From Candidatus Omnitrophota bacterium (GTDB lineage Bacteria > Omnitrophota > Gorgyraeia > Aquiviventales > Aquiviventaceae): a stretch of DNA of 64,000 nt. This document shows positions 12,576 to 42,158 of this stretch, piece by piece. Every line of letters begins with the position of its first letter. Positions within the stretch are counted from its first letter, which is position 1. The stretch is taken from NCBI GenBank assembly GCA_016190215.1, contig JACPRA010000020.1, positions 12,868 through 76,867 on the forward strand, written 5' to 3'. The notes under the pieces are model-generated. The model saw only the letters and a program-made list of their open reading frames with translations, was not told where the DNA came from and made no database searches. A program made the position numbers and the translations under genes.

Positions 12576-13979
12576 TTAACGACAATCAACAGTGGCCCAA
12601 CCCGTCCGATACTCGAGCAGCCAGCTATTTCCAGACGAGGGGCATGGTGAGGTGCAGCTCGTTCCTCCCGTCGCAATAATCGTGGAGCTTCCACTGTAAC
12701 AGCTCGGGCCGGTATATGCATGACAGACTCTCCATCCACCCCCGGCACCGCACGATGGAACGGTGGATGAGGTAAATCCGCCGGTACCCCCCGGCACCGT
12801 CCCCCTGTAACACGGTCCAGTAGGCCACACACCCAACACCTCCTCAGAAGATGTTGTGGTGTAGCTGTCGAGGCAGGTCCACTCCGGATTGCGCGTCTCC
12901 TCCCCGTCACAATTATAGTCGTAGCTTCCGCTGCTTCTCGGCGAGGAGAAAAACGCGTTCTGTTCAGGATGGACATTGTTGTTCCCATCATCGCAGTCCG
13001 AAGGAGTCGTCCTGCTGGTTCGATAGCCGCCGAGGCTCTCACAAGAGATGCCCCGACACACCGTCACTACCCCAGCGAGCGTCCAAACGTCGTTGTCGCT
13101 ATCCGGATAGCACGCGAGCAGCTGCCATTGGCTTCCGTCCGTTGGCGCGCAGTCAGTGCCATCATGGCTCGCAGTCCACCCGGTCGCCGGAGCTGGCTCT
13201 CCACAGACTTGGGTGGCCACGGCGTCAGGGGTGGTATGACCATCATTGTCCGGATCGGGATAGCGGGTATACAGCGCGTATTTGGTCGGATCGCCGTCAT
13301 CGCAGTCATCAGGACTCGAGCGGGTTGTCTTCCATCCGGCTGGGAGAAACGGATCCCCTTGAATCGTCTGCAACTCACCAATGGTATGCCCATCCCCATC
13401 ACTATCACGGTAGGCTTGATACGTTTGGCCTCCAGGGGGGTCCGCACACGCGACAGAGACTGGAAGCAACGTCCCATCAGTCTTGATATAGAGGTTATGA
13501 CAGGTCGGGTTGCCGACCGGACTGTCCACGTCAACCAGTCGCAAGCCGGTGCCGCGAACCGGCAGAAAGACGTCTCCCGCCACCGCCAACGGCGCTCCCG
13601 GCTGCGTGGTTCCGATCCCGACCCGGCCCTCCATGGTCACCAGCAGCCCGGCGGGTTTGCACTCCTGGTCGTCCAGCGCGCGATCCGCATTCTCGTCATA
13701 CCAGGCGGTCCCGCTCGGACAGGGGCCGGTCGTCCCGCCGACCATTGTGGGGTTGGTGGCCGGGGAGCCGGCGACCACCAGCCGATGCAAAATCGGTTGA
13801 TTGTCCGAATCGGTAGGCCGCTGGCCGCCGATGGCCAGCGTTTCGGTAGCACGCAGCTCCTGATAGACCCCGCGCGGGGAGGGGTAGTAGGTCGTGAGGG
13901 TGAGGTCTTCGGCGAGGGCGTAGGCCAGGGTGCCCACGCTAACCAGCACGACCAACCAGTTCCCGATTCTCGTTCGCAT
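12576..13979 (-). CDS. Secreted Cys/Asp-rich protein with shared N-terminal module (paralogue A)
   Basis: Has a signal peptide then EDLTLTTYYPSPRGVYQELR. The body carries repeated DSDGDGHT / DPDNDGHT / DCDDGDP / DCDDGNN motifs and is Cys-rich. 467 aa. Confidence 0.8.
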   Translation of the reverse strand: MRTRIGNWLVVLVSVGTLAYALAEDLTLTTYYPSPRGVYQELRATETLAIGGQRPTDSDNQPILHRLVVAGSPATNPTMVGGTTGPCPSGTAWYDENADRALDDQECKPAGLLVTMEGRVGIGTTQPGAPLAVAGDVFLPVRGTGLRLVDVDSPVGNPTCHNLYIKTDGTLLPVSVACADPPGGQTYQAYRDSDGDGHTIGELQTIQGDPFLPAGWKTTRSSPDDCDDGDPTKYALYTRYPDPDNDGHTTPDAVATQVCGEPAPATGWTASHDGTDCAPTDGSQWQLLACYPDSDNDVWTLAGVVTVCRGISCESLGGYRTSRTTPSDCDDGNNNVHPEQNAFFSSPRSSGSYDYNCDGEETRNPEWTCLDSYTTTSSEEVLGVWPTGPCYRGTVPGGTGGFTSSTVPSCGAGGGWRVCHAYTGPSCYSGSSTIIATGGTSCTSPCPSSGNSWLLEYRTGWATVDCR

Positions 13980-14130
13980 GGTGGTGGGGCTCTCCGGGAT
14001 ACTCGGAACACCTCAAGAACTTTTCATGCCATTATACGCCGGTACGGCGTCTCTGAGTTTGGCACCAACAGGAACGCCTCCGATGCTCCCCTACGTTACG
14101 TGTCCCCGCGGAACCCGGTACGGATTTCCA

Positions 14131-15408
14131 TCAATGATATACCTCCTCAACGCAATAGTAGACGTTGTTGCCTGCGCTGGAAGCAAAGTTCTGATAGAAC
14201 TGAACGCCGAAACACGTAACGTTCGAACCAGACCCGACATGGTCGGACGCAAACAGGCGGCAACTGCTCCCCTGTGGGCACGGGTTCACAGAACAGGCAC
14301 TGCCGGTTAACCAACGGTATGGAGCAGTGACGACAGGCCCGCAGCTGCTGTTGAGAACTCCCCACTCTTGGCTCGTCGTATCATCGGCCGTCCCATTGCA
14401 ATCTTGGTCGAGACCATCAGGACTGCTCGTCGCATTGCCGCTGCTCGGAAAACACATCGAACAGCTATCATTGCAATCGGTATTGGAGGCCGCCAGATTC
14501 GTTCCGCAGACGCCCGGCCCCGAAGCACAAATCGGCGACCCGCCTGCGGCATTTCGGTCTCCATACTCGTCATTATCGCCATCGGGATAACAGGTCACGA
14601 GCACATGCACCGCCGCATCGTTGTCGTTGCAGTCCGCCGACGCACTGCTGGTCGTCTTCAAATACGCTGGATGAGTGCCGGCGGCGCACACCGTGGCGGG
14701 ATCGGCCAGCGTCCAGCCATCGTTGTCTTGATCCGGCCAGCCGGTGTAGGACTGCCAAACGCTGGGGTCGTTGTCGTCACAATCGTTCCCCTGTTGGGAC
14801 GCTCGCCAGCCCCCCTGCTCAAACGTTTCCAAGGAAACATTCTGCGCCCCTCCTACGGTGTAACCATCGTAGTCGCTGTCCCGATAGGCGGAGAGTGTCC
14901 GGCCGCCAGGCGGATCCACGCAGGTGACGGCGAGCGTCAATAGCGCACCGGTCGAATCCACGTACAGGTTATAGCATTTCGTCGGGTCGTTGATGGCGCG
15001 CATGCGCAGGCCGGCGCCTTGGGTTTCAATGGCAATGTCGCCGCCCTTAACGCCGAACGTCGCCGCCGGCTGCACGGTCCCGATCCCCACCGGCCCCGAT
15101 GTGCTCACCACTAATGCGGTCCGCTTGCACTCTCCCTGCGCGTCCTTCAACCCATTCTGATTCTCGTCATACCAGTCATACCCGGCGGGACAGTCCCCGA
15201 ATTCCGTTCCCACGCTTCCCCCCACGATTGTGAGAACCCCCTTGGACTCGCTCGTCCCCAGGCTGGCGTTATCTACCACCCGCAAGGATTTATAGACCCC
15301 GCGCGGGGAGGGGTAGTAGGTGGTCAGCGTGAGGTCTTCAGCAATCGCATAGGCGACCGCGCCGAAGCACGCCAGCAGCAGCAGCCCGCGCGACCGGATC
15401 GGACTCAT
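14131..15408 (-). CDS. Secreted Cys/Asp-rich protein with shared N-terminal module (paralogue B)
   Basis: The same N-terminal module (AEDLTLTTYYPSPRGVYKSLR) and the same DxDxDG / DCDD / DCND Cys-rich motifs. The ATG overlaps the ICMT stop (ATGA). Confidence 0.8.
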   Translation of the reverse strand: MSPIRSRGLLLLACFGAVAYAIAEDLTLTTYYPSPRGVYKSLRVVDNASLGTSESKGVLTIVGGSVGTEFGDCPAGYDWYDENQNGLKDAQGECKRTALVVSTSGPVGIGTVQPAATFGVKGGDIAIETQGAGLRMRAINDPTKCYNLYVDSTGALLTLAVTCVDPPGGRTLSAYRDSDYDGYTVGGAQNVSLETFEQGGWRASQQGNDCDDNDPSVWQSYTGWPDQDNDGWTLADPATVCAAGTHPAYLKTTSSASADCNDNDAAVHVLVTCYPDGDNDEYGDRNAAGGSPICASGPGVCGTNLAASNTDCNDSCSMCFPSSGNATSSPDGLDQDCNGTADDTTSQEWGVLNSSCGPVVTAPYRWLTGSACSVNPCPQGSSCRLFASDHVGSGSNVTCFGVQFYQNFASSAGNNVYYCVEEVYH

Positions 15409-16103
15409 CGTTTCGGCAGACCCGCCCGGCAGCGCAATTCAGCGATGCCGTCCGTCAGGATGCACGCCACCAAAACGAGCGCCAGCACGATATGCGTGAG
15501 CCGCGATGCCCCGGCAAACAGCTCGCCCTCCTGCAAGAACTCTTCGTGGAAATACAACCCCACCAGGCCCACCCCCAGCCAGAGCACCGTCTTGAGCTCT
15601 TTGCTGGCCTGGATGCCCTGCCGGCTCCACGTGCCGTTCCGGTGGGCATACCGGCGCCAGGTCGGAACCCATCGCGGCACCGCCCGCTGGTACGCCGCGT
15701 AAGCCTCGCCCCACTCTTCGAGGATCAGCGCTTCTTCCTGGCGGACTTTCGGGACGTACGTCAGCGCATAGAACAGCACGACGCCGAGGGCGCCCCACAC
15801 GCTTTGGGCCGCCACGCACAACCCGATGCCGATCAGAAAGGTCCCCACGTAGAGGGGATTGCGCATGTAGGCATAGGGCCCGGCGGTGATGAGCGAGCCA
15901 ATTTTTTTCGCCTCAAGCCCAGCGTGAGCCGTATTCACTTTGCGATGGCCGACGTAGCCGTTCGCCCAGAGGCGGATCACCTCGCCAAGCAGCGCCAGCA
16001 GGACCCCGACGCGCAGCGACGTCTCGCTGGTGCGGGCGGTCAGCACCCCGAAGACCACCAGCGGATAGACCCAGATGAATCGCAACTTTCGAAACGATCT
16101 CAT
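15405..16103 (-). CDS. Isoprenylcysteine carboxyl methyltransferase (ICMT/PEMT) family membrane methyltransferase
   Basis: A multi-TM protein with the YMRNPLYVG ... EEALILEEWGEAYAAYQRAVPRWVP C-terminal signature of ICMT/phospholipid methyltransferase. The start overlaps the Ste24 stop (ATGA). Confidence 0.7.
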   Translation of the reverse strand: MRSFRKLRFIWVYPLVVFGVLTARTSETSLRVGVLLALLGEVIRLWANGYVGHRKVNTAHAGLEAKKIGSLITAGPYAYMRNPLYVGTFLIGIGLCVAAQSVWGALGVVLFYALTYVPKVRQEEALILEEWGEAYAAYQRAVPRWVPTWRRYAHRNGTWSRQGIQASKELKTVLWLGVGLVGLYFHEEFLQEGELFAGASRLTHIVLALVLVACILTDGIAELRCRAGLPKR

Positions 16104-17206
16104 GACGCGCCCTGCTCCGCCACCCGAATCCGCTCGCTGATCGGCGGGTGATCATACAGCAGCCACACGATCCAGGCCGGCGGGCTGGGATCGGCGAGGT
16201 TCAACTGACCCAGCCGCTTGAGCGCCGACGCGAACGCGCGGGGCTGGTTCGTCAGCCGCACCGCGAACCGGTCCGCCTGCCACTCGAACGCGCGCGAGAT
16301 CGCCTGCTGAATGGGCAGCCCCAGGAGGCCCACCGCCGACAGGGCCAGCAGTAAAATTGGAAACCCGCGCAGATCATCCAGGGCGGCCATCAGGCCGGCC
16401 GGGATGGCCCAGCCATGCACCCAGCTATTGATGAGGCTCAGCGCGATCCACGACCCGACCCCGCTGATGGCCAGCATCCGCACCAGGTGGCGATGCACGT
16501 GGTGCCCCAGCTCATGCGCCAGCACGGTTTCAATTTCTTCCGGAGGAAACGATTCGAGCAGTGTGTCGGACACCAGCACCCGCCGGGTGCGCCCCAAGCC
16601 GGTGAGGGCGGCGTTGGCCTTGCGCGTCTCCTTCCCCAGCTCCACGCGGAAGACGCCCAGGGCCGGCAGGCCGATGCGGTCGCACAAGGCCAGGAGGCGC
16701 GGGGCCACCTCGCGATCCCGCAGCGGCTCCGTCCGATAAAACAACCGCAGGAGCCAGGTGGGAAACACGCGCGTCATCACCACGCTGAGGCCCATCCAGC
16801 CCAGCGCCGCCACCAGCGGCCAGGCGGCGGGCCACTGCCGGATCAGCGCGTACCAGCCTTCCATGATCAGCAGCCCGAACGTTCCGCTCAGGAGCAGCTG
16901 CTTCGCCTCGCGACGCGCCCATTCGCCGGGACTCATGCGAGACAATCCGAAGCGATGTTCCAAGACGAACCCGCCATACCAGCGCAGCGGCAGCATGATC
17001 AGCGCATTGACGATCCCGAACACCACGAGGTAGGCCGCCAGCGTGATGCTGAAGGGCGCGGCCCACGCTTCCACGCGCGCGGCCACGGCCGCCGAGCATC
17101 CGCCGGCGTGATAGCCCCACACGAACAGAAACCACCCCAGCAGCTCCAGGAGCGCCACGCGGTAGCGCAGCGTCGCGTACCGGCGGGCCTGGGTGTCTTC
17201 AATCAT
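16100..17206 (-). CDS. Ste24-type M48 zinc metalloprotease (CAAX prenyl protease-like)
   Basis: HELGHHVHRH is an HExxH motif. A long multi-TM N-terminal domain precedes the M48 domain (Ste24 architecture, about 370 aa). The start at 17206 (MIEDTQ) overlaps the glpD stop by 8 nt. Confidence 0.7.
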   Translation of the reverse strand: MIEDTQARRYATLRYRVALLELLGWFLFVWGYHAGGCSAAVAARVEAWAAPFSITLAAYLVVFGIVNALIMLPLRWYGGFVLEHRFGLSRMSPGEWARREAKQLLLSGTFGLLIMEGWYALIRQWPAAWPLVAALGWMGLSVVMTRVFPTWLLRLFYRTEPLRDREVAPRLLALCDRIGLPALGVFRVELGKETRKANAALTGLGRTRRVLVSDTLLESFPPEEIETVLAHELGHHVHRHLVRMLAISGVGSWIALSLINSWVHGWAIPAGLMAALDDLRGFPILLLALSAVGLLGLPIQQAISRAFEWQADRFAVRLTNQPRAFASALKRLGQLNLADPSPPAWIVWLLYDHPPISERIRVAEQGAS

Positions 17207-18839
17207 TGGCTTCAGAGGAGAAGGCTTCGGCCGGCTCGGCGGACGCGTCGCGAAACGCCAGGCTCTCCGCCAAGAGCGTCCGGTACTCCGCCACCTGCGC
17301 GTCCAGCTCCTCGCGGCTGGCATGGCCGTACCGCCCCATCAGCTCGGTCAAGGTGGAGAGAAAATCCAGCCCCTGGCACGCGCTGTAGGCGACGCGCGTC
17401 CGGCGGACCAGCACGTCGCTGACGGTGCACGCCAGCTCCTGCTGGAGCGCGTAGACCAATTCCGCCAGCAGATAGTCGTGGTGCGGGCACGCCGGTTCCG
17501 CCAACTTCGGCTCGAACTCGACGAGCTCCAGAACACGGAACGCGCCGGTGCCGTAGAGCGAGAGCAAGCGGCCCAACAGCTCCGGATGGATGCGCTGCGT
17601 GACGCGCTGCCAGCGGTCCAGTACCACTGGATGCACCGGCTCCAGCAGACTCACTTGATCAGTCAGGCACCGCTCCACGGAGAACCGCCACCGGCGGACG
17701 ATCGCGTCCACCGTCTGTTGGGCGATCAGCCGATACGTTGTATATTTACCGCCGAGCACGCTGACCAATCCGAACCGGTCCACCTCAATGCGGTGCTCGC
17801 GGGATGCCGAGGTCGAGGAACCGGAAAACGCCAGTAAGGGCCTCGCCCCGGCATACGCCCCGATCACGTCCTGCGGGGCCAGCGCTTCGTCTGGAAAGAG
17901 CCGGTTCGCTTCATCGAGCAAATAGGCGGCCTCATCGCGCGTCGGCCGCAACCCGTCCAGCGACGGCACGGGCGATTCGGTGGTGCCGAGAATGGAGGTG
18001 TTGCCCCACGGCAACAGGAAGATCACGCGGCGGTCCGCGTGGGCTTGGAAGCAGACGCCGTGCGTCGCCAGCCTGGGCACGACCAAATGGATGCCTTTGG
18101 TCGGGGCCAGCCGGAGGCCGGTCTGCCGGTCGCTGAGCTGCCGCACGCGGTCCCCCCAGGGGCCGCCGGCGTTCACGACGACGGTAGCACGCACATCGAA
18201 CACTTCGCCGGTGCGCCGGTCTTCCACGGCAGCACCGTAGAGCCGGCCCAGGGCTTTCTCGAGCGCGATGACCCGGAGATAGTTGCCGCAGATGGCGCCG
18301 AAGCTGACCGCCTGCAGGATGTTGGCCAGGCAGAGCCGGGCGTCGTCCATCATGCCGTCCGTGTACTCGCCCATCGCCTGCAAGCCGCCCTGGCGCAACC
18401 GCGGCTCCAGCCGCGCGGCGTGGCGGGCCGCGTGCCAGCGATGCCGGCGCACGGCGTGAGAGGCGCTGAGGAGGTCATACAGCGTTAAACCCGCCCGCAC
18501 CACCGACGGGCGGCGCGCGTCTCCGCGATAGACCGGCAACAGCAGCGACAGCGGCCGCACCAGCCCCGGCGCGATCGTCAACAGGGTGCTGCGCTCCTGC
18601 AGGCCCTCCCCGACCAGGCGCAGGCGCCCGTGCTCCAGATACCGCAGCCCGCCGTGGATGAGCTTGGAGGTTTTGGAGCTGGTGCCGCCGGCGAAATCGC
18701 CCTGCTCCACCAGCGCGACGCGCAGCCCGCGCATGGCGGCATCGCGGGCGATGCCCGCGCCCACAATGCCTCCGCCGATGACCAGCAGGTCAAAGGCTTG
18801 ATGGCGTAATTGCGCTAGAATTTCGTTGCGACGCGCCAT
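17199..18839 (-). CDS. glpD: FAD-dependent glycerol-3-phosphate dehydrogenase
   Basis: DLLVIGGGIVGAGIARDAAMRGLRVALVEQGDFAGGTSSKTSKLIHGGLRYLE is the GlpD N-terminus. 546 aa. Confidence 0.85.
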   Translation of the reverse strand: MARRNEILAQLRHQAFDLLVIGGGIVGAGIARDAAMRGLRVALVEQGDFAGGTSSKTSKLIHGGLRYLEHGRLRLVGEGLQERSTLLTIAPGLVRPLSLLLPVYRGDARRPSVVRAGLTLYDLLSASHAVRRHRWHAARHAARLEPRLRQGGLQAMGEYTDGMMDDARLCLANILQAVSFGAICGNYLRVIALEKALGRLYGAAVEDRRTGEVFDVRATVVVNAGGPWGDRVRQLSDRQTGLRLAPTKGIHLVVPRLATHGVCFQAHADRRVIFLLPWGNTSILGTTESPVPSLDGLRPTRDEAAYLLDEANRLFPDEALAPQDVIGAYAGARPLLAFSGSSTSASREHRIEVDRFGLVSVLGGKYTTYRLIAQQTVDAIVRRWRFSVERCLTDQVSLLEPVHPVVLDRWQRVTQRIHPELLGRLLSLYGTGAFRVLELVEFEPKLAEPACPHHDYLLAELVYALQQELACTVSDVLVRRTRVAYSACQGLDFLSTLTELMGRYGHASREELDAQVAEYRTLLAESLAFRDASAEPAEAFSSEAND

Positions 18840-18857
18840 GTGTTCTCCGCTACGACA

Positions 18858-18959
18858 GGCTCATGATGCTGAATGCCTGATGAAAGATGATGCCGGATGA
18901 CTGATGATAGATGATGGATGTAATTCGCCCTTCATCAATCATCCATCATCAGGCATCAA

Positions 18960-18975
<16 letters not shown>
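18858..18975. repeat. Palindromic element of about 100 bp, family 3, copy 2
   Basis: Near-identical to 7196-7310. It lies between glpD and glpK. Confidence 0.85.
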
Positions 18976-20472
<1,497 letters not shown>

Positions 20473-20474
<2 letters not shown>

Positions 20475-21267
20475 GTCCTTCACATCCGATTCCACACGTT
20501 TTTTGGCCGTCGCGGTCCGCGCCGCGCGCGCGGCCGGCGTCTTGCTGGCCGAGCGCGCCGGCAAACCGCGCCGCGTTGACACCAAGCGCAATGCCATTGA
20601 TCTGGTGACGGAGGTGGACCGCGCCGCCGAACGGATGATCCACCAGGCGGTGCGCGCCGCGTTTCCGTCCCACGGGTTTCAGGGAGAAGAGCGCACCCGC
20701 GCCAACCCGGCGTCCCCGTTCCAGTGGATCGTGGACCCGGTGGACGGCACGATGAACTTCGTGCACGGCCTGCCGACGTTCGCCGTCTCGATCGGCCTGC
20801 ATCACGAGGGCCGGCCGCTCGTCGGTGTCATCTATGACCCGATGCGCCGGGAACTGTTTTCCGGCATCGCCGGGCGCGGCGCGTGGCTCAACGGCGCGCG
20901 CATCCGCGTCTCCCGCGCCCCGCACCTCTCCACCAGCCTGCTCTCGACCGGATTTCCCTCAGCGTTCCGCCGGACCCCGCGCCGGTTTCTCAAGCCCTTT
21001 GAGGCGTTTCAGTCCCGCTGCCACGGCGTCAGGAGGATGGGCTGCACGACCATCAGCTTAGCGTATGTGGCCTGCGGGAGATTGGAAGGGTTTTACGAGC
21101 AGAACTTGTGGCCGTGGGACATCGCCGCCGGCATGCTCCTGGTGCAGGAAGCCGGCGGGCGCCTCAGCGACTTCCGCGGCCGTCCGGCCCAGCTGAGCCG
21201 GGGCGAGTTGGTCGCATCTAACAGCTTGATCCACCACGAGATGCTGTCGCATCTCGCCACAGTATAG
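20473..21267 (+). CDS. Inositol monophosphatase family protein (SuhB-like)
   Basis: WIVDPVDGTMNFVHGLP and downstream motifs are typical of the IMPase family. It is divergent from glpK with overlapping start codons. Confidence 0.75.
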
Positions 21268-25874: not shown

Positions 25875-26666
25875 TCACGCCCGGCAGACGCCGCGCTTCG
25901 ACTGCCGAATGAACTCCAGCAGGCGCGTCACTTCCGGGCAGGGGGCCACTTCCTTCGCCACCCGCTCGAGGGCATGGCTCATGGAAAGCCCGGAGTTGAA
26001 GAGCAGCCGGAACGCCTTGTGCAGAAGCTCTTTGGATTCGGCGGAGACTCCGGCGCGCCGCAGGCCTTCGTTGTTCAGCCCGAACACCTGCGTGGGATAC
26101 CCGGCACAGGTGGAATAGGGCGGGATGTCCTGCGCCACGCGCGAGCAGCCGCCGGTGATGGACAGCCGCCCCACCCGGACAAACTGATGGATGCCCACGA
26201 GCCCCCCCATCACCGCGCCGTCTTCAATTTCGATGTGCCCGGCCAACTCTGTGGTATTCGCGATGATCACGTGGTTGCCGATGAGACAGTCATGCGCCAC
26301 GTGGGAATACGCCATGAGCAGGCAGTCGGAGCCGATCACCGTCTTGCCCCCGCCGCCCTTGGTGCCGGGATTGATGGTCACGTACTCGCGGATGCGGTTG
26401 CGGTCGCCGATGATGAGCTCGGTTTTTTCGCCGGCGTACTTGAGGTCCTGCGGGATGCTGCCGATCACCGCGCCGGTGAAGAGCTGGCAGTCGGAGCCGA
26501 TGGTGGTGTAGCCCTCCACGACGCAGTGCACGCCGATGCGGGTGCCGGACCCGATGCGGACGTTCGGCCCGATCACCGAGTAGGGGCCGACGTCCACCCC
26601 CTCGCCCAGGACGGCCTGCGGATCAATGATGGCCGTCGGATGGATGGTCGCGGTGGCCGCCATCAT
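25875..26666 (-). CDS. lpxA: Acyl-ACP--UDP-GlcNAc O-acyltransferase
   Basis: IHPTAIIDPQAVLGEGVDVGPYSVIG and hexapeptide repeats. The start is placed at MMAATATIHPT. Confidence 0.85.
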   Translation of the reverse strand: MMAATATIHPTAIIDPQAVLGEGVDVGPYSVIGPNVRIGSGTRIGVHCVVEGYTTIGSDCQLFTGAVIGSIPQDLKYAGEKTELIIGDRNRIREYVTINPGTKGGGGKTVIGSDCLLMAYSHVAHDCLIGNHVIIANTTELAGHIEIEDGAVMGGLVGIHQFVRVGRLSITGGCSRVAQDIPPYSTCAGYPTQVFGLNNEGLRRAGVSAESKELLHKAFRLLFNSGLSMSHALERVAKEVAPCPEVTRLLEFIRQSKRGVCRA

Positions 26667-27991: not shown

Positions 27992-28016
27992 GGTTCGATT
28001 CCTCGGTGTTGACGGA

Positions 28017-28580
28017 TCATGATCCCTTTTTGCCGCCGGCGGCATACCGGTCGTTGAGCGACTTCAGCACTTCGTCGGTGAGATCGTAGACATCGTCGCC
28101 GACGATCAGCGAGCGCTGGTCCAGCACCAGGGAAAATCCGTTCGCCCTGGCGTACGCGGTGACGGCGCCGTCAATCTCATCAAAAATCTGCTTGGCCACC
28201 TGGTTGCGGTCGCGCACCGACTCCCGCTCGCTCTTGGTCTTGAGCCGCTGGAATTCGTCCGACTTCTCTTCCAGCTCTTTCGACTTGGCTTCTTTCGCCT
28301 GGTCGTTGAGCAGCTCCAGGTTCTGCCGCATCTTCTTGAGCTCGCCGAGCCGCCCTTCCAGCTCCGACAGCTTCTGCTTGCCGCGCTGCTCCAGCACCTG
28401 CTCGGTATCCTTGGTGCGCTGGTACTCTTCAAACACACGGACCAGGTTCACGTAGCCGATTTTCAGCTCGGCCGCCTTCAGGACGGGACAGGAGACAGGT
28501 GACAGGAGACAGGTGCCAACCAACAACGCTCGGATGCTCCAGGACATCATCCACGTGTTCAGCCGAACTGGCGTCTTCAT
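28017..28580 (-). CDS. skp: OmpH/Skp periplasmic chaperone
   Basis: Has a signal peptide. The coiled-coil is rich in Lys/Glu (KIGYVNLVRVFEEY...). It sits between bamA and the lpx genes. Confidence 0.7.
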   Translation of the reverse strand: MKTPVRLNTWMMSWSIRALLVGTCLLSPVSCPVLKAAELKIGYVNLVRVFEEYQRTKDTEQVLEQRGKQKLSELEGRLGELKKMRQNLELLNDQAKEAKSKELEEKSDEFQRLKTKSERESVRDRNQVAKQIFDEIDGAVTAYARANGFSLVLDQRSLIVGDDVYDLTDEVLKSLNDRYAAGGKKGS

Positions 28581-28662
28581 CACGTCGTCTCTCCTCATGC
28601 AGTTGTTGTGTCGTCGCATACCTGTCTCACTTGTAACCTGTCACGTGTCACCTGTTACTTTG
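28478..28662. repeat. Family-2 heptamer repeat (GTGACAG), inverted pair flanking the skp 5' end
   Basis: One arm is gacaggagacaggtgacaggagacaggtgcc (28478-28520). The other is cctgtctcacttgtaacctgtcacgtgtcacctgtt (28620-28660). The first arm encodes the Skp signal peptide LLVGTCLLSPVSCPV. Confidence 0.8.
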
Positions 28663-28663: not shown

Positions 28664-30967
28664 CTAAAAACTCCGGCTGACGTTGAAGTGGATGCGCGGG
28701 GAGCGCTTCTCATCGCCCAACTGGGTGATGGGGAACCCCAGATCCACCCGGACCGGGCCGATCGGCGTGTTCACCCGCATGCCGATGCCGGTGCCGCTCT
28801 CGAATGACTGCCCGAAATCGCTGATGCTCCTCCACACATTGCCCACGTCATAGAAGACCGACCCCTTCAGGATGGACTTGCCGCGCTCATCCTTCAAGAT
28901 GGTCGCCACCTCTTCCAGCGTGCCCATGAAGATCGCTTCACCGCCAATGGGGTCGTTGGAGACGGCGTCCTTCGGGCCGACGCGCCGCTCGCGGAACCCG
29001 CGGATGGTGTCCGCGCCGCCGGCGAAGAACCGCTCGAAGATCGGGACCTGCGCGGTGTTATCGTATTCGTTGACCAGGCCGGTTTTGAGGCGGGTCTCCA
29101 GCGTGAACCGGTCCCAGTGCGAATAGTAGGTGCTGACACCGCCCTGCAGCCGGTAGAAATCCCGGTTGCCGGCCAGCAGCCCGCCGGCCAGGTCGGACGA
29201 CACGAAGGTCACGATGCCGCGCGTGGGCTCGAAGCGGTTGTCCCGCGTGTCCCACGTCAGCGTCGCGTTCGCCACGCTGATGTCGCTGCGGCCCTGTTCC
29301 GCTTTCAAGTCGGCCGACGCGTCCGCCACCACATCCGAGATGTCCGTCCGGAACAGCTGGTAGCCGATCCCCGCGTGGAGGTTTTCGCCGAAGCTCTTGC
29401 CCAGCCGCAGGCCGCCTCCCTGCCGCCGCTCTTCAAACGCCAACCCCAGGTTCCGGCTGCGCAGCCGGGTCCGGCTGAACGCATCCACCCCGAGGGAGAC
29501 CGGATGGCCGAAAATCCACGGCTCGGTAAACGAGAGGTCGAAGTACCGCCGCACCGTCCCGACTTCCACGCGGAAGCGCAAATCCTGCCCCGCCCCCGTG
29601 AAGTTCGGCGGGTTGAAGAGATCGAAGTTGCGCTGCTCGACTTCCACCAGCCCGACGATGCGGTCCACTGAGGAGAACCCGCCTCCGAAGCTGAAGCTGC
29701 CGGTCTTGGCTTCCTTCACGTTGACGATCAGGTCGTCATGCTGCGGCAGCGGCGTCGCCTGCGTGTCCACGTTCACTTCTTCGAAATAACCGAGATTGTA
29801 CAGCCGCTCGATGGACCGGCGGATGCGCGAGCCGTCGAAGGGCTCGCCCGGATGCAGGCGTATTTCCCGCCGCACCACCACGTCTTTCGTGCGCAGGTTT
29901 CCCCGGATGTCAATGCGCCGCACGTAGGTGAGGTCGTGCTCCTCGACCTGCAGCGCCAGGTCCACGCGCTTGCTGGCCGGGTCCAGGGTCGTCGCCGGCG
30001 TCACCACCGCGTGGATGTACCCGCGGTCGCCGTAGTACTGCGTCATCGTGCGCAAGTCTTCCTGCAGCACCTCGGTGTTGTACACCGCGCCCGGCTTCAA
30101 GCGCAGGAGCACTTGCAGGTCTTCCGGCGGGAACAGCGTCACGCCAGCGAGGGAGATCGTCCCGATGCGGTGCTGCAACCCCTCGGCAATTTTCAGGTGG
30201 AGATACAGCTGGCGGCCGGACGGATCGGCGGCCAGGGAGTGCTCCACGCGGACATCCTGGTAGCCGTTGCGCCGGTAAAACGCGCGGATCCGCTCCGCAT
30301 CTTCTTCCAGCACTTGCTCGTCGTACACGCCGGCGGTGAACCAATGCCGCCGCTTGGTCTTCAGCAGCTTCAGGATGCGCCGGTCCGGAACGGCCAGATT
30401 GCCTTCGATGAAGATCCGGCGGATGCGCATCTGCGGCCCCTCATCCGCCACCACGTACACGGTGGCTTGGTTGGTGGCCGGATCGGCGGACACGCTGCTT
30501 TCGACGGCGATCTTCGAGTAGCCCTTGCGGCGGTACTCAGCCTTGAGCTTGTCGACGCCTTCCTTCACCTTGCGGGGGTCATAGAGCTGCCCGGCCTCCA
30601 CGCCCAGCAATTGCCGCAGCCGCTCGACCCGAAACAGCCGGAACCCCTCGAATTCCACCGCGGTGATCGTGGGCTTCTCGGTGACCTGAAAGACCACGCG
30701 CACGCCGTCCGCCGCCGGCTCCGTGGCCACCTGGATGTCGGTGAAGTAGCCCAGCGCGTAGAGCCGGCGGATGTCCTCGCTGACGACGGATTCGGCATAG
30801 AGCATGCCCGGCTTGGTTTGCACGCGCGCCAAGCACGTTTCCGACGCGATGGTGTGCAGGCCGGCCACGTCCACGCTGACGACGCGCGGGGCCTCGTTCT
30901 CCGCCATCGCCGGGGCGGCCCCGCCGATCAGCACGACCCCCAGCCAGAGCGCCTGCCACGCGCGCAT
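28664..30967 (-). CDS. bamA: Outer membrane protein assembly factor BamA
   Basis: 767 aa. Has a signal peptide, POTRA repeats and a C-terminal beta-barrel. Confidence 0.85.
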   Translation of the reverse strand: MRAWQALWLGVVLIGGAAPAMAENEAPRVVSVDVAGLHTIASETCLARVQTKPGMLYAESVVSEDIRRLYALGYFTDIQVATEPAADGVRVVFQVTEKPTITAVEFEGFRLFRVERLRQLLGVEAGQLYDPRKVKEGVDKLKAEYRRKGYSKIAVESSVSADPATNQATVYVVADEGPQMRIRRIFIEGNLAVPDRRILKLLKTKRRHWFTAGVYDEQVLEEDAERIRAFYRRNGYQDVRVEHSLAADPSGRQLYLHLKIAEGLQHRIGTISLAGVTLFPPEDLQVLLRLKPGAVYNTEVLQEDLRTMTQYYGDRGYIHAVVTPATTLDPASKRVDLALQVEEHDLTYVRRIDIRGNLRTKDVVVRREIRLHPGEPFDGSRIRRSIERLYNLGYFEEVNVDTQATPLPQHDDLIVNVKEAKTGSFSFGGGFSSVDRIVGLVEVEQRNFDLFNPPNFTGAGQDLRFRVEVGTVRRYFDLSFTEPWIFGHPVSLGVDAFSRTRLRSRNLGLAFEERRQGGGLRLGKSFGENLHAGIGYQLFRTDISDVVADASADLKAEQGRSDISVANATLTWDTRDNRFEPTRGIVTFVSSDLAGGLLAGNRDFYRLQGGVSTYYSHWDRFTLETRLKTGLVNEYDNTAQVPIFERFFAGGADTIRGFRERRVGPKDAVSNDPIGGEAIFMGTLEEVATILKDERGKSILKGSVFYDVGNVWRSISDFGQSFESGTGIGMRVNTPIGPVRVDLGFPITQLGDEKRSPRIHFNVSRSF

Positions 30968-32316: not shown

Positions 32317-32420
32317 ATCCTAGCGTACAGCGTACAGCGTGCAGCGTGCAGGAAAGGCGACGCGAGCAACGTGATGTGGTGTGGTTGCCTGTCCGCTCTA
32401 CGCTGAACGCTGTCCGCTAG
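32317..32420. repeat. Heptamer palindromic repeat variant (GTACAGC/GTGCAGC)
   Basis: The left arm tagcgtacagcgtacagcgtgcagcgtgcagg faces a complementary arm cgctctacgctgaacgctgtccgctag. It lies between dnaB and rplI. Confidence 0.7.
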
Positions 32421-33677: not shown

Positions 33678-34055
33678 CTAGTCTCGGTATTCCCGGTGGC
33701 GTCCAGCCGGCGCCGACGAGCGCTCGCTCAGCACCGGCGGGGTCGTGCCGGCCGCAGCCAGCGCCGCCTCGTCCTGCGTCAGGATCAGGTAGCGGACGAT
33801 GGACTCGTTGAGCTGCAGGAGCCGCTTGAGCTCATCGAGCTGCAGCGAATCGAGACGGAACCGCAGCCAATGATAATAGCCTTCCTGCTGGCGCGCGATG
33901 CGGTAGGCAAACCGCCGCCGGCCCCAGCTGCTGGAGAGGTCAATCTGCCCGCTAAGCTTCTTGACGGGCTCCTCGACCCGGGCGACTGCTTGCGATTGCT
34001 CGGCTTCGGTCCCGATCGCCTTGAGGATGACGAGGGCTTCATACGTCCGGTTCAT
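33678..34055 (-). CDS. rpsF: 30S ribosomal protein S6
   Basis: MNRTYEALVILK is the S6 N-terminus. The start overlaps the pth stop (ATGA). Confidence 0.85.
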   Translation of the reverse strand: MNRTYEALVILKAIGTEAEQSQAVARVEEPVKKLSGQIDLSSSWGRRRFAYRIARQQEGYYHWLRFRLDSLQLDELKRLLQLNESIVRYLILTQDEAALAAAGTTPPVLSERSSAPAGRHREYRD

Positions 34056-34684: not shown

Positions 34685-34775
34685 TCAGCACACAGCTGAC
34701 AGCACACAGCCGACAGCAGACAGAGGAAACGCCGTAATGAAATGTCTGTGTGCTGTCTGCTGTGTGCTCAAGGCT
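34682..34775. repeat. Family-1 palindromic heptamer element, full hairpin
   Basis: cagcacacagctgacagcacacagccgacagcagacag, then a loop, then ctgtgtgctgtctgctgtgtgct. It lies between the pth start and the rplY stop. Confidence 0.85.
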
Positions 34776-35515: not shown

Positions 35516-35542
35516 GTGGACTCCCGGGTATGGTGCCTGGCG

Positions 35543-36517: not shown

Positions 36518-36529
36518 GCCGTCACGGTG

Positions 36530-37960: not shown

Positions 37961-38084
37961 CGGTCTGTGTGCTCCTTACCAACCTCGTTGCTGTGCCGAT
38001 TCATGATACCGTTTCTCTAACAGTTGCCCCGACGTGACGAGGATCGCGGCTCCCTTCGAGCCCTGGAATACCCACGACAAAACC

Positions 38085-38154
38085 TGGGGAGCCAGGGCTC
38101 GAACCTGGACGTAGGGCTTCAAAGGCCCTTGTGCTACCGTTACACTACTCCCCA
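38085..38154 (-). tRNA. tRNA-Gln (anticodon UUG)
   Basis: Manual fold of the reverse complement TGGGGAGTAGTGTAACGGTAGCACAAGGGCCTTTGAAGCCCTACGTCCAGGTTCGAGCCCTGGCTCCCCA. It has a 7-bp acceptor stem, anticodon loop CTTTGAA (TTG) and T-loop TTCGAGC. CCA is not encoded. Confidence 0.85.
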
Positions 38155-39041: not shown

Positions 39042-40223
39042 TTACCACGAGATCACAACCTTGCCTTTGGCGCCAGTGCCCCCGTCCGGGCCACCTCCCG
39101 CTCCCCCGCCACCAGGCGCGGCCCCCACCGCAGCCGTCGTGGCTCCGCCGGATCCGCCATTGCCGCCATCGCCGCCTCGACCGCCGGAGCCGGCCACTGG
39201 CGTATCGCCCTGGGCTCCTGCTTGGCCTGAAATCGCCAAGGTCAGCGTACTACTCCCTCCCTGGCCGGCCCCTGAGCAGGTGGTACTGCACCCGTTTTTC
39301 CCTCCACCACCACCGGTCGCGTTATACGAGATCCCTTGTCCGGAAAATGTGCTCGAGCCGCCGGTGCACCCGTACCCGCCACATGCCGCTCCGCCTGCTC
39401 CGCCCGCTCCAACCACCACCGTATATGAGGCTCCGGAGATGACCGGCACAATCCCCTTGCCGTATCCTCCGCCTCCTCCCCCGGCGCCTGGCGTCCAACA
39501 ACACACGGCATTCCCGCCTCCGCCGCCCGCCCCCCACATCTCCAGCACAATCTGGGGCACATCCGCCGGAGCGATAAACGTATAGGTGCCTGCCGTGTCA
39601 TACGGTTGTATCCCATGCGGGAGGGCCCCGCCGGCGGATTTCCAACTCGTCCCATCATAGACTTCCAGTTGGTTCGAGTCCGTGTTATAGATGACCATCC
39701 CCTCCACCGGAGAGGTCACCGCGCTCGGGAGCAGCCGGGGCGGAAGGAAGCCGGAATTGGTCGAACGAATGTCCAGGGCGGCGGTCGGATTCGTCGTCCC
39801 AATGCCGACCTGGCCGTTGAGGAAAATGAGTGTGCTCGTGTCGCTGGTCCCGACGCGTAACGTATTGCCCTGCACCCGCAGCGCGTACCCTCCCGGATCG
39901 GTCGTCCCGATGGCGACATTGCCGTTACTATCGATCAAGAAGGGGCTCGTATCCCCGCTCGGAGCATCATCAATACGAAGGGTCGTTGTTCCGCCGCCGC
40001 CGACCACATACACGGCAGGATTGTTCAGATCGCCGATGACCTGCAATCGCGCGGCGGGCGAACTCGTCGTGCCGATCGCCACATCTCCGCTGGTGCGCAG
40101 CTCCTTATAGACGCCGCGGGGCGAGGGGTAGTACGTCGTGAGGGTCAAGTCTTCGGCGAGGGCGTAGGCGAGGGTGCCAAGAAGGATAACCAGAACCCAC
40201 CAGCCGCGGAGGCGTGAAGTCAT
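39042..40223 (-). CDS. Secreted Gly-rich protein with shared N-terminal module (paralogue C)
   Basis: The start MTSRLRGWWVLVILLGTLAYALAEDLTLTTYYPSPRGVYKELR is chosen by alignment to the other three paralogues. The body has the motif LPPRLLPSAVTSPVEGMVIYNTDSNQLEVYDGTSWK, then a Gly-rich domain (LEMWGAGGGGG ...), and ends GKVVISW. Confidence 0.75.
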   Translation of the reverse strand: MTSRLRGWWVLVILLGTLAYALAEDLTLTTYYPSPRGVYKELRTSGDVAIGTTSSPAARLQVIGDLNNPAVYVVGGGGTTTLRIDDAPSGDTSPFLIDSNGNVAIGTTDPGGYALRVQGNTLRVGTSDTSTLIFLNGQVGIGTTNPTAALDIRSTNSGFLPPRLLPSAVTSPVEGMVIYNTDSNQLEVYDGTSWKSAGGALPHGIQPYDTAGTYTFIAPADVPQIVLEMWGAGGGGGNAVCCWTPGAGGGGGGYGKGIVPVISGASYTVVVGAGGAGGAACGGYGCTGGSSTFSGQGISYNATGGGGGKNGCSTTCSGAGQGGSSTLTLAISGQAGAQGDTPVAGSGGRGGDGGNGGSGGATTAAVGAAPGGGGAGGGPDGGTGAKGKVVISW

Positions 40224-40230
40224 TGCGTGT

Positions 40231-40533
40231 TTATACCCACCCGAGTTTGCGCAGCCGAGGGATGGCGTCCAAATAGACCTGTGCGTCTCGACGCATGCCG
40301 ACTTTGACAACGAGCACGATCAGACGTTGGCGCTCGATCCGGTAAATCACGCGGTAGTCCTCAACCCGCAGCCGCCGATATCCCGCCAAGACGCCTCCCA
40401 ACGGTTTGCCGAACTCGGTCGGGGCCGCGGTCAATTTCTTCCGGAGGGCCTTGGTGATCTGCAGGCGAGCCTGCGGATCGAGCCGAGCCAAATCCTCTGT
40501 CCAGACGAGTGGATGAATCTCAACCTGCCACAT
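40231..40533 (-). CDS. relE: Type II toxin RelE/ParE family
   Basis: 100 aa. GYRRLRVEDYRVIYRIERQRLIVLVVKVGMRRD is the RelE/ParE core. It follows the Phd gene. Confidence 0.75.
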   Translation of the reverse strand: MWQVEIHPLVWTEDLARLDPQARLQITKALRKKLTAAPTEFGKPLGGVLAGYRRLRVEDYRVIYRIERQRLIVLVVKVGMRRDAQVYLDAIPRLRKLGWV

Positions 40534-40539
40534 CCAGGG

Positions 40540-40830
40540 TTAGGAATGCCGCAGGCCCACTCGCCGTTCCAGCTCTTCCAAGCTCAGGTAGGATTTCACC
40601 GGATGGCGCTGCTCGCGTTCTTTCGCCAACAACCCCAGCAGGTACTCTTCCAGCGCATCCAAGGTGGCTTCCGTGCGCTCATATCGCTGGATGGGCACCA
40701 ACACCGCAATCGGCCGATGGTGTTTTTCGAGAATGACGGATTCCCTCTGCGCCACTTTCACAATTTCCTCCGCGTGGGTGCGCAACTCCGAGATCCCCAC
40801 GAGCGTCGTATCCCCTTTAATCTGCCGCAT
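40540..40830 (-). CDS. Type II antitoxin Phd/YefM family
   Basis: 96 aa. ISELRTHAEEIVKVAQRESVILEKHHRPIAVLVPIQRYE is the Phd/YefM pattern. It lies 7 nt upstream of relE. Confidence 0.75.
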   Translation of the reverse strand: MRQIKGDTTLVGISELRTHAEEIVKVAQRESVILEKHHRPIAVLVPIQRYERTEATLDALEEYLLGLLAKEREQRHPVKSYLSLEELERRVGLRHS

Positions 40831-40913
40831 CGTCCCTCCTGTTCCTCACCAGCACAAGCCTATCATATGACTATTTAATTGTCAAATTAATTGTCAATCG
40901 TATTCTCTCTCGC

Positions 40914-42158
40914 TCACCACGTGATCGCGACTCGGCCCGGGGCGCCATCCCCACCATCATATCCACTCACCACCGATGGATGCGCACCGCCACCACCTCC
41001 CCCACCGCCGGGAGCGTCGCCATTCGCCCCTGCATTCTGAGGCGCTCCCCCGCGACCACCGGTACCACCGTTGCCACCACTTCCGCCACTACCGCCTTTG
41101 GGAGGAATGTTTTGAGAAATGCACGCAGCATTTTCTCCCCACTGACCGGAGACACTCATGTATTCACTACTCCCGCCACCACGACCGCCATAGATCACAC
41201 CGCTCTCCGTGCTGCCTCCGGTCGCTAAGACCGTGCCGAATGCTTGGCTCGCAACAGTACTCGAGCCTCCAGCCGTCGCAGCCCACTCACCCTGAGCGAT
41301 GCCGCCCTGCCCTCCTGCCCCGACGGTGACGGTGATCGGATAGGAGGCTACGTCGGGCGTCACAGCCACCACCCGCTTTCCATATCCTCCTCCCCCGCCC
41401 CCTCCACCACCACAGGCTACCAACACCCCACCACTCATATACGAGTTCGCGTAGCTTCCACCCGCCCCCGCACCCCATGCTTCTATCTGGATGCTGGATA
41501 CATCTGGCGGAATCAGAAACGTGTTAGAACCGGGGCTAGTAAAGACTTCCATCCCGTGCGCCGATGGCGGCGGAGGTGGGGGCGGCGGAGTGCCGCCGCA
41601 TGGCCAGACCACGCTGCCACAGGCTTCCAGCTGATTCGTGTCGGTGTTGTAGACCACCAACCCCTCGGCTGGAGTGAGAATTGCATCCCGCTGGCTCGTC
41701 GTCATCCGGGGAGGCAACAATCCTTGAGTGACGGACGAGATTTCGACGGCCGCGGAAGCAGTGGGACTCGTTGTTCCGATCCCCACCTGCCCTGCCGTAG
41801 TCACGAGCAGGCCGGGGGGCCTGCACTCCTGGTTATCGAGGGAGAGGTCCGCGTCCTCGTCATACCAGGCGGTCCCGGCGGGGCAGGGGCCGGTCACACC
41901 CCCCACCTCTGTCGGGTTTGTCGCCGGGGCACCGGCCACGACCAACCGGTGCGGAATCAGCTGGGCTGAGGTGTCGGTGGGGCGCTGGCCGCCAATGGCG
42001 ACCATCTCGGTGGCGCGCAGGTCCGTCGTGCGCAGCGACTGATAGACCCCCCGCGGCGAGGGGTAGTACGTCGTGAGGGTCAAGTCTTCGGCGAAGGCGT
42101 AGGCGAGGGTGCCCACCAACAGAACAGCCACGATCCAACCGTTCAGGCGCGGAGACAC
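40914..42158 (-). CDS. Secreted Gly-rich protein with shared N-terminal module (paralogue D)
   Basis: Has a signal peptide then AEDLTLTTYYPSPRGVYQSLR. The first third resembles paralogue A (GPCPAGTAWYDEDAD). It then has LPPRMTTSQRDAILTPAEGLVVYNTDTNQLE, a P8 stretch, a Gly-rich domain, and ends GRVAITW. Confidence 0.8.
   Translation of the reverse strand: MSPRLNGWIVAVLLVGTLAYAFAEDLTLTTYYPSPRGVYQSLRTTDLRATEMVAIGGQRPTDTSAQLIPHRLVVAGAPATNPTEVGGVTGPCPAGTAWYDEDADLSLDNQECRPPGLLVTTAGQVGIGTTSPTASAAVEISSVTQGLLPPRMTTSQRDAILTPAEGLVVYNTDTNQLEACGSVVWPCGGTPPPPPPPPSAHGMEVFTSPGSNTFLIPPDVSSIQIEAWGAGAGGSYANSYMSGGVLVACGGGGGGGGGYGKRVVAVTPDVASYPITVTVGAGGQGGIAQGEWAATAGGSSTVASQAFGTVLATGGSTESGVIYGGRGGGSSEYMSVSGQWGENAACISQNIPPKGGSGGSGGNGGTGGRGGAPQNAGANGDAPGGGGGGGGAHPSVVSGYDGGDGAPGRVAITW

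Follow-up and report, generated by a model that had tools for sequence, protein, structure and literature searches.

Tail-fibre-like proteins of Omnitrophota share a conserved peptide at their predicted mature N-terminus, a candidate linear signal for type IV filament-dependent export

The stretch of DNA analysed here (64 kb of a Candidatus Omnitrophota genome, hereafter the window) contains four open reading frames (ORFs), all on the minus strand, whose products begin with a signal peptide followed by the invariant element EDLTLTTYYPSPRGVY..LR. We call these paralogues A, B, C and D, and the conserved element, which is predicted to form the N-terminus of the mature proteins, the tag. The sequence data indicate that A to D are four members of a large Sec-exported family, found essentially only in Omnitrophota. 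On the basis of gene context and analogy with known systems, we propose, at a probability of about 0.5, that the tag serves as a docking and export peptide for the type IV filament machine of this phylum, and that the paralogues are interchangeable, recombining fibre adhesins. That the tag acts more generally as a linear, transferable signal for a machine resembling type II secretion systems (T2SS) and type IV pili, with dozens of cargos per genome throughout the phylum, we regard as possible at somewhat short of even odds. The name type IV filament system is used here to span both the pilus and the T2SS. The relevant features of the window are as follows.

12576..13979, minus strand: paralogue A, 467 aa; signal peptide, tag, short stalk with VGIGTT, Cys/Asp-rich repeat body
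13911..13979, minus strand: predicted Sec signal peptide of A, residues 1-23, end AYALA, by the AXA rule
13851..13910, minus strand: conserved mature N-terminal tag of A, EDLTLTTYYPSPRGVYQELR, residues 24-43
14131..15408, minus strand: paralogue B, 425 aa, MBI2884945.1 (hypothetical protein); architecture as in A
15340-15408, minus strand: predicted signal peptide of B, directly before the tag
15280..15339, minus strand: conserved tag of B, residues 24-43
39042..40223, minus strand: paralogue C, 393 aa from ATG, MBI2884970.1 (hypothetical protein); signal peptide, tag, VGIGTT-repeat stalk, LPPR..YNTD motif, glycine-rich C-terminal domain
40155-40223, minus strand: predicted signal peptide of C, directly before the tag
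40095..40154, minus strand: conserved tag of C, residues 24-43
39045..39596, minus strand: Gly_rich_2 domain of C, residues 210-393 (Pfam, 1.2e-11)
40914..42158, minus strand: paralogue D, 414 aa, GTG start; mosaic
42090-42158, minus strand: predicted signal peptide of D, directly before the tag
42030..42089, minus strand: conserved tag of D, residues 24-43
41769..41963, minus strand: A-like segment of D, 76% nucleotide identity to 13605-13799 of A, ending in GQVGIGTT
40917..41540, minus strand: Gly_rich_2 domain of D, residues 207-414 (Pfam, 5.7e-12)

The sequences of B and C are those of the two accessions given above, which derive from a 101-kb contig of a Candidatus Omnitrophica metagenome-assembled genome (MAG), and the protein collection holds no entry for the exact sequences of A and D. 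In all four proteins a basic n-region and a hydrophobic h-region precede the tag, and their alignment leaves A19 Y20 A21. A23 E D L T L T T Y Y P S P R G V Y.. L R invariant. A six-frame scan with a regular expression and with a hidden Markov model (HMM) finds exactly four copies of this module in the window, at E-values of 1e-26 to 3e-30, and a repeat search recovers it as a 133-nt family of 4 copies. A preliminary description of the window had placed four ORFs with a common 5' module at these coordinates, which ORF calls and alignment bear out. Its rendering of the protein start as M-x-x-R-x-x-G-W is loose, since W is missing from B and conservation of the signal peptide does not extend beyond this lineage; the AYA and the tag block are the invariant part.

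The same description had suggested that a profile of the module be run against public databases. An exhaustive HMM search of protein clusters with a 52-position profile matched 2,596 cluster representatives at E<=1e-3 and 340 at E<=1e-10, whereas a word-index search with the 52-aa profile gave only 5 fragments. Among the 150 best matches listed, which are 47-765 aa long, the match mostly begins at residue 1 and never later than about residue 41. Alignment of 310 members yields the tag consensus E-[DE]-[IL]-T-L-T-T-Y-Y-P-[SA]-P-[RY]-G-[VA]-Y-x-E-L, in which conservation is 100% at Y9, P10 and P12 and 99% at G14 and Y16. In these members the tag starts at residue 25 (median) and is preceded by an uncharged h-region of 17 residues; Ala occupies position -1 in 97% of them and Glu position +1 in 99%, and A, S, V, G or L is found at -3. 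The conserved element thus begins exactly at the predicted signal-peptidase I site (AXA-type, A|E). Twelve of 16 tag positions show at least 93% identity, and ten of them at least 97%, across a phylum of 38-66% GC. Conservation ends after about 20-25 residues, both across the family and among A to D. The signal peptide differs between lineages and the cargo is variable as well, leaving the mature N-terminus as the only conserved part; the near-identity of the signal peptides of A, C and D is, on this comparison, a local feature of recent ancestry. When a member from a 66% GC genome is compared with one from a 42% GC genome, 12 of 16 residues are identical but only 4 codons, which indicates that the tag is conserved at the protein level, with selection acting on the protein. 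A nucleotide-level cause of the conservation, such as an RNA or regulatory element, was rejected, as codons differ between lineages and upstream regions do not align.

Among GTDB species representatives we located 79 tag loci, nearly all of them in MAGs and single-amplified genomes of Omnitrophota, and a single MAG (nzgw325) carries at least 21 distinct tag copies. A few of the 79 loci are labelled Planctomycetia, 'bacterium' or Gemmatimonadaceae. Labels other than Omnitrophota on tag genes include Gemmatimonadaceae (locus L040, where two tag genes adjoin a PilM/N gene), 'bacterium' (L023, L056 and L063) and Elusimicrobia (metagenome protein P0263); they could reflect mis-binning, mislabelling or real spread outside the phylum.

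Known families and structures do not account for the tag. Scans against Pfam (E<=1) and NCBIfam r20 (E<=1) gave no match on residues 1-45, and PHROG likewise gave nothing on the N-terminus. A sequence search of the PDB returned no match to the tag profile at E<=10 and none to protein C at E<=0.1; what it did return for either query were chance matches to transmembrane helices only. A literature search of 8 million full texts with motif strings found no match, and the tag family is not described in the searchable Omnitrophota literature; published Omnitrophota genome surveys, which focus on giant ORFs and pili, do not mention it. NCBI annotates the family members examined as 'hypothetical protein' throughout. 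The preliminary description had been unable to assign the motif to a known sorting signal, and Pfam, NCBIfam, PDB and literature searches lead to the same result. Two metagenome proteins, P0262 and P0265, are divergent tag variants (KTVKLTTYYPAPYGEY) and carry the precomputed Pfam label PF26696, which our local Pfam copy does not reproduce; this entry probably covers the LPPRMT..QRDAI..YNTD motif, which C and D also have.

Clustering of all ORFs from the 79 genome loci brought out two conserved contexts. In 10 species, drawn from lineages of both high and low GC, a type IV filament operon that runs on one strand throughout includes tag genes, in the order TPR-ExbB-ExbD-..-pilins-TAG gene(s)-PilM/N-PilO-x-secretin-ATPase. 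Locus L026, for instance, encodes ExbB, ExbD, three N_methyl pilins, two tag proteins, a PilM-PilN fusion, PilO and Secretin, and the same operon order is found in L016, L018, L020, L025, L032, L033, L040 and L046. In L073 the genes read PilM, PilO/T2SSM, T2SSB-like, Secretin, T2SSE ATPase with MshEN, T2SSF, pilin, pilin, TAG, pilin. Metagenome contigs served as an independent replicate: 13 of 24 tag loci of at least 6 kb (about 10 of the 13 being distinct) have the order TPR-ExbB-..-pilins-TAG x1-4-PilM/N-PilO-x-Secretin-ATPase. In total, about 20 independent loci have tag genes in the slot between minor pilins and PilM/N. For GCA_001805685.1, public gene calls with precomputed Pfam annotation list ExbB, ExbD, a pair of tag proteins of 666 and 648 aa, PilM_2, PilO/T2SSM_b, Secretin, MshEN+T2SSE, T2SSF and an N_methyl/ComP_DUS pilin. 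Directly upstream of the tag genes lie three short genes to which Pfam assigns no match; they were called pilins from the prepilin motif (by regular expression) in the equivalent locus L018. The parts of the machine comprise one major pilin, three or four minor pilins, a GspF/PilC platform and a GspE/PilB-type ATPase, together with the PilM-PilN fusion and a PilO/GspM-like protein, which we take to be a GspL/GspM-like arrangement. The gene directly ahead of the tag genes encodes a pilin of 212-297 aa. These operons are the machinery that co-occurs with the module, a matter on which the preliminary description had looked to family-wide searching for an answer.

The shared 'R-x-x-G-W + hydrophobic' start of the window proteins was also considered as a type IV prepilin signal. 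A class III (type IV pilin) signal has a short basic leader that ends in Gly, then F/M-T-L-x-E and a hydrophobic helix kept in the mature protein. The tag family lacks both a conserved Gly ahead of its hydrophobic segment and a Glu at +5. Moreover, the hydrophobic segment is variable and ends in AXA, and the prepilin regular expression that finds the neighbouring pilins misses the tag proteins. The prepilin reading was rejected on account of the unconserved Gly and the AXA end, and cleavage at A|E by signal peptidase I is predicted. In the window, two genes upstream of B attracted attention as a possible processing pair: a Peptidase_M48 with a CAAX-prenyl-protease N-terminal domain (16100-17323, minus strand) and a PEMT/ICMT-family methyltransferase (15405-16103, minus strand). 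The two genes overlap start-to-stop and the start of B overlaps the stop of the PEMT/ICMT-like gene. They form a Ste24-plus-ICMT-like pair in a bacterium; as tag-processing enzymes they were rejected, such genes not being found beside tag genes elsewhere.

The second conserved context is of a different kind. In about 30 mostly low-GC species pheS and pheT are separated by a small tag gene (typically 111-190 aa), as part of thrS-infC-rplT-...-pheS-X-pheT and with median gaps of 15 and 25 nt; examples are L029, L035, L036, L038, L045, L047, L052, L054, L057, L060, L065 (7935-8306), L067, L070, L072 and L074. These small members have a conserved C-terminal beta domain, GTVNATAYSVGG...TITVxNGIITxI. 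Their location bears on a rival explanation, according to which the tag anchors the fibres to another partner in the envelope, be it an outer-membrane protein, a surface layer or the small pheS-pheT protein, and the linkage to the pilus operon is mere co-regulation of attachment functions. An envelope anchor would suit the conserved small member in the pheS-pheT operon of so many species, the many tag copies outside the pilus operon, and the position of the tag, which sits where the fibre stalk begins and some 10 residues ahead of the first VGIGTT; an invariant tag on unrelated cargos likewise implies one shared partner. The MAT fibres of Bdellovibrio bacteriovorus follow the same logic, with a surface partner that is still unidentified (PMC10769870), and the N-terminal tail of the adenovirus fibre may be compared. 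Yet anchoring leaves unexplained how Sec-exported fibres would cross the outer membrane, the window encoding BamA, LpxC and a lipid A acyltransferase, and why tag genes occupy a fixed slot between minor pilins and PilM/N in some 20 independent loci. Furthermore, among the ORF clusters of the 79 loci no alternative partner gene recurs beside tag genes. We consider an envelope anchor of this type unlikely.

As the tag is invariant on unrelated cargos, it should have one common partner, and as the proteins are Sec substrates of a diderm with the look of external fibres, they need a route across the outer membrane; taken together with the fixed gene slot, this makes docking of the tag on the minor-pilin tip the simplest model. 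Signal peptidase I would cut at A|E and expose the same unstructured peptide of about 20 residues on every member, at the cell-proximal base of the fibre stalk. In the periplasm the tag would bind the minor-pilin tip complex, and extension of the filament would carry the fibre through the secretin, to be displayed at the filament tip or released. With one tag on all paralogues, a single machine could be loaded with many binding 'warheads', and these might diversify by tandem duplication, by domain swapping at the VGIGTT stalk motif and by gene conversion of the tag. Family membership, the limits of the tag, its conservation through the phylum, the types of cargo, the mosaic of D and the embedding in operons are seen in the data, whereas cleavage at A|E, the trimeric state, minor-pilin binding and export or display are inferred. 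One of the readings offered in the preliminary description, a dedicated sorting or processing tag on the mature N-terminus, gains support from the start of the element at the signal-peptidase I site, its phylum-wide conservation and its occurrence on unrelated cargos.

Several observations weigh against this model. The evidence tying the tag to the machine consists of conserved synteny alone, and the pilus operon contains neither A to D nor the majority of copies in multi-copy genomes. In the window the regular expression detects no prepilin genes, and no pilus genes lie near A to D. The minor pilins beside tag genes are only weakly annotated, with N_methyl at E 1e-3 to 1e-9. In low-GC lineages the commonest single location of the tag is pheS-pheT, which the proposed mechanism does not explain. 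The tag has no sequence resemblance to the export signals of TcpF or CofJ (see below), even though structures of both are in the PDB and would have been open to matching, and no large, lectin-bearing minor pilin of the CofB/TcpB type was identified in the tag operons. Finally, signal-peptide cleavage is predicted, not observed, and the disorder of the tag in AlphaFold2 (AF2) monomer models is weak evidence.

As to the cargos, the family is a set of Sec-exported, tail-fibre-like proteins with swappable distal domains, which are probable adhesins. C and D each match Gly_rich_2 (E about 1e-11) and, among the PHROG tail families, phrog_863, with E-values of 3e-17 for C and 2.6e-19 for D. A and B instead consist of Cys/Asp-rich DxDxDG...DCDDxD repeats; B reaches 23 bits for the MopE motif, under the 27-bit cutoff, and A has no match in Pfam, NCBIfam or PHROG. 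The two cargo classes of the preliminary description, Cys/Asp-rich in A and B and Gly-rich and tail-fibre-like in C and D, are therefore confirmed by Pfam and PHROG, and its statement that the cargos are unrelated holds between the two pairs but not within them. Among 149 representatives Pfam finds Peptidase_S74 in 8, Gly_rich_2 in 8 and Gp53-like_C in 1, most having no match, and 10 operon-embedded members that were scanned carry varied cargos, including S74 and the YadA head repeat. Peptidase_S74 is the intramolecular chaperone of tail fibres and endosialidases. In most members the tag is followed by a GxVGIGTTxPxxxL stalk motif, with the first VGIGTT about 10 residues past the tag.

The AF2 model of C (mean predicted local distance difference test score, pLDDT, of 71) shows the signal peptide as a confident helix. 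Its best Foldseek matches in the PDB are the Bdellovibrio MAT fibres Bd2133 and Bd1334 and the fibre of cyanophage Pam3, followed by the Bxb1 tail tip and the glycine-rich domain of ALK/LTK; the trimeric state of the fibres is assumed by analogy with such homologues. In a 123-aa member the signal peptide is again a helix and the C-terminal domain is well defined (pLDDT 85-96), with only weak Foldseek matches, to a Bdellovibrio fibre. The preliminary description had suggested that structure prediction might reveal a free N-terminal strand. The N-terminal segment indeed appears free, but as coil: the tag has pLDDT 52-75 in C and 56-77 in the 123-aa member, on whose C-terminal domain it is not packed. 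These monomer models are weak evidence that the tag is unstructured by itself, and an unpacked coil is what would be expected of a peptide that needs a partner.

The models and the stalk bear on two further alternatives. The tag might be a structural nucleation element, a trimerisation clamp or first beta-strand inherited from an ancestral fibre N-terminus, with no role in sorting. In agreement with such an origin, A/B and C/D are full-length paralogues, and the tag is contiguous with a conserved stalk repeat, many members having a GNVGIGTTxP stalk. However, the stalk and the remainder of the proteins diverge or are swapped while the tag stays near-invariant across the phylum, and it precedes differing architectures in proteins of 111 to 765 aa. 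In addition, AF2 does not pack it against the fibre, and a purely structural element offers no explanation for the operon position by the minor pilins. We therefore judge a structural remnant to be improbable.

The second alternative, already raised in the preliminary description, regards the tag as a donor beta-strand. Head-to-tail polymers would be built from the small pheS-pheT protein as major subunit and capped by the large paralogues. The alternating I/L-T-L-T-T-Y-Y fits an amphipathic strand, and the C-terminal beta domain of the small members (111-190 aa) could be the acceptor. On the other hand, the large paralogues are without this putative acceptor domain, the tag does not co-vary with its cargo, and the cargo folds are unrelated to pilins. 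In the AF2 monomer the strand does not complement the C-terminal domain, which it usually does in models of true donor-strand subunits. The gene families that recur beside tag genes included no chaperone or usher that was noticed, although no search aimed at these was made. The invariance of the tag across unrelated cargos argues for a common partner rather than for self-complementation, and donor-strand assembly thus appears very unlikely.

The four window genes also record how the family may diversify. A and B are tandem full-length paralogues with 40% identity over 374 aa, and read as an old tandem pair. C and D have the fibre body and the Gly-rich domain in common, their bodies being only about 40% identical as proteins. 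Residues 1-138 of D are 70% identical to A, with no relationship beyond this point, where the body matches C, and the D tag is 96-98% identical to the C tag at the nucleotide level. D consequently joins a tag of the C type to a spacer resembling A (residues ~45-138) and, from the GQVGIGTT motif on, to a fibre body resembling that of C, and this shared motif is the likely recombination junction. C and D share an exact run of 40 nt (40120-40159 and 42055-42094); the preliminary description was right about the existence of this run, but wrong in its length of 39 nt and in the position 42076-42114. With the codon usage of 39 other window ORFs selected as likely genes as the basis of expectation, identical codons number 20/27 for A-C, 20/26 for A-D and 22/25 for C-D versus about 12 expected (3-4 standard deviations, SD), whereas B-C (10/24) and B-D (11/24) are at expectation and A-B, with 15/23 versus 10.5 expected (about 1.9 SD), is not clearly above it. 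Nucleotide conservation beyond the needs of the protein, as had been claimed for the module, hence applies to A-C, A-D and C-D; it does not apply to B-C and B-D, nor clearly to A-B.

From these comparisons, gene conversion appears to have acted on the tag between the neighbouring genes C and D, and the overall pattern fits 5'-end gene conversion together with domain shuffling, as in tail fibres and MATs. No template/variable repeats like those of diversity-generating retroelements, and no other long repeats, were found around the genes except the module and the A/D segment. The mosaic nature of D, suspected from the start, is substantiated by the switch from an A-related first third to a C-like body. 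The preliminary description had named whole-gene duplication as an observation that would refute it, and this applies in part, in that A/B and C/D are also whole-gene paralogues. The three-part structure of D and the unrelated cargos support its alternative of a recombination-driven variable surface-protein family, which is compatible with a sorting tag.

The resemblance of the cargos to phage proteins raises the question of whether the genes are prophage tail-fibre remnants whose shared 5' end is a phage recombination cassette. Homology of the cargos to phage tail families, mosaicism of the tail-fibre type and the ParE/Phd pair between C and D would agree with this origin. Against it, every member carries a Sec signal peptide, the family's conserved sites in genomes are the pilus operon and pheS-pheT, and no tag relative was found in the 2.9 million viral contigs of IMG/VR. 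No phage structural genes occur among the window neighbours, which are housekeeping genes. The window is ordinary chromosome of a diderm, encoding BamA, an LpxC-FabZ fusion, lipid A acyltransferase and DnaB, besides purine and histidine biosynthesis, transketolase, IspE and GlmU. C and D are 2 kb apart, separated by a ParE toxin and a Phd/YefM antitoxin (40231-40830, minus strand). As transketolase and ispE are adjacent in locus L077 of another Omnitrophota genome, the block C-ParE/Phd-D looks like an insertion between these two housekeeping genes in the lineage of the window. A prophage origin is barely credible on this evidence.

Among known systems, the functionally closest are the export signal of TcpF and CofJ and the MAT family of Bdellovibrio. 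TcpF, from the toxin-coregulated pilus (TCP) system of Vibrio cholerae, and CofJ of CFA/III from enterotoxigenic Escherichia coli are encoded in the pilus operon, trimerise and are Sec-exported; their first 10-25 mature residues are disordered with essential aromatics, and they ride through the secretin (PMC10120004, PMC9565799, PMC6048534). The disordered mature N-terminus is both required and sufficient for export dependent on the type IVb pilus, and in TcpF it binds the trimeric tip minor pilin TcpB in a manner that depends on Tyr5, as CofJ does with CofB (PMC10120004, PMC9565799, PMC6048534). Like these signals, the Omnitrophota tag forms the predicted mature N-terminus, where disorder is likewise predicted; it is rich in Tyr and Pro, and in about 20 loci, though not in the case of A to D, its genes are found among minor pilins. 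Unlike TcpF and CofJ, of which each pilus has one, tag proteins number dozens per genome and are mostly encoded outside the operon; they appear to be fibre adhesins rather than soluble colonisation factors, and their binding and export are predictions. The machine also differs, being T2SS- and type IVa pilus-like (PilM/N fusion, PilO/GspM) instead of type IVb.

The MAT fibres, of which strain HD100 of the predatory B. bacteriovorus has 21, are tail-fibre-like trimers that bear Sec signals and combine a constant N-terminal part with swapped C-terminal tips, in S74 and non-S74 subfamilies (PMC10769870). The tag proteins likewise have a signal peptide, a tail-fibre-like stalk and a variable tip, with S74 and non-S74 members, and are presumed trimeric by homology. 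In contrast to the folded, beta-rich N-domain of about 130 aa in MATs, the tag family is constant over only about 20 residues, which are modelled as coil; this distinction between the N-termini is drawn from the published description of the MATs. No operon link to pili is reported for MATs, whereas the tag family has one. Phage tail fibres and tailspikes are similar in their mosaicism, in the constant carrier-proximal N-terminus and in the Gly_rich_2, Peptidase_S74 and PHROG tail cargos, but the tag proteins are cellular and Sec-exported, occur in housekeeping and pilus-operon contexts and are absent from viral contigs.

PilY1/PilC is a further point of comparison. It is a non-pilin with a type I signal peptide, encoded between minor pilins (fimU-pilVWXY1E) and believed to be located on the tip complex that the minor pilins form. 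In L073 (pilin-pilin-TAG-pilin) the tag gene takes the same place. PilY1 is single-copy or few-copy and attaches via its C-terminal domain, not via an N-terminal peptide, and the C-terminal beta-propeller of PilY1/PilC has no Pfam match in the four window proteins, the 149 representatives or the 10 operon-embedded members.

Substrate recognition by T2SSs and by type IV pili that secrete proteins has been a question for a long time, and the only defined linear signals, those of TcpF and CofJ, serve a single cargo each. A short, nearly invariant, searchable tag on thousands of proteins, with genes beside those of the minor pilins, would allow recognition to be tested with peptide, minor pilin and secretin as the components, and, should it be an export tag, would make the secretome predictable from sequence alone. 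We propose the tag, from its sequence and distribution, as a testable, phylum-wide candidate for a linear signal in type IV filament-dependent export; if confirmed, it would be the first multi-cargo signal of this kind. Omnitrophota are uncultured nanobacteria thought to attach to or prey on cells, and the tag points to a diversifying attachment apparatus that would parallel the MAT fibres of Bdellovibrio. These ultra-small, probably predatory or epibiotic bacteria might then arm one pilus with exchangeable tail-fibre 'warheads' for host recognition. If the tag were only a structural remnant, an ordinary expanded family of hypothetical fibre proteins would be left.

Some further features of the window were noted. 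A 524-aa protein with a DUF7305 domain is encoded at 4162-5736 (plus strand). Its N-terminus, a hydrophobic segment followed by ...ELRHSQVALEEHQAFWQAEAGL, resembles by eye PilX_N, a minor pilin of non-canonical type, without Pfam support; the protein was also considered as a homologue of those encoded after tag genes in the pilus operons, and rejected as it shows no similarity to them. The LpxC-FabZ fusion is a single ORF (26663-28045, minus strand) that joins LpxC to a FabA/FabZ-like dehydratase and adjoins BamA (28664-30967). A direct repeat of 102 nt with 92% identity occurs at 7199-7300, within and just downstream of the 3' end of gene 7291-8508, and at 18864-18965, which is intergenic upstream of gene 17199-18839 and includes the last bases of the glycerol kinase gene 18960-20597. 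One family of intergenic repeats has GTGACAG units (8445-8534, 28485-28656, 56018-56053 and 61678-61713), with inverted partners at 8505-8534 and 28627-28656. The other is built of heptamers (ACAGCAG / ACAGCAC) at 1843-1930, 3007-3152, 32320-32361, 34685-34774, 56353-56382 and 60271-60357, which are paired with nearby inverted copies (CTGTGTGCTGT) and form long imperfect hairpins. In one example, 60270-60302 pairs with 60329-60361 through 33-nt arms that are 85% complementary; these hairpins look like repetitive extragenic palindromic elements or terminators.

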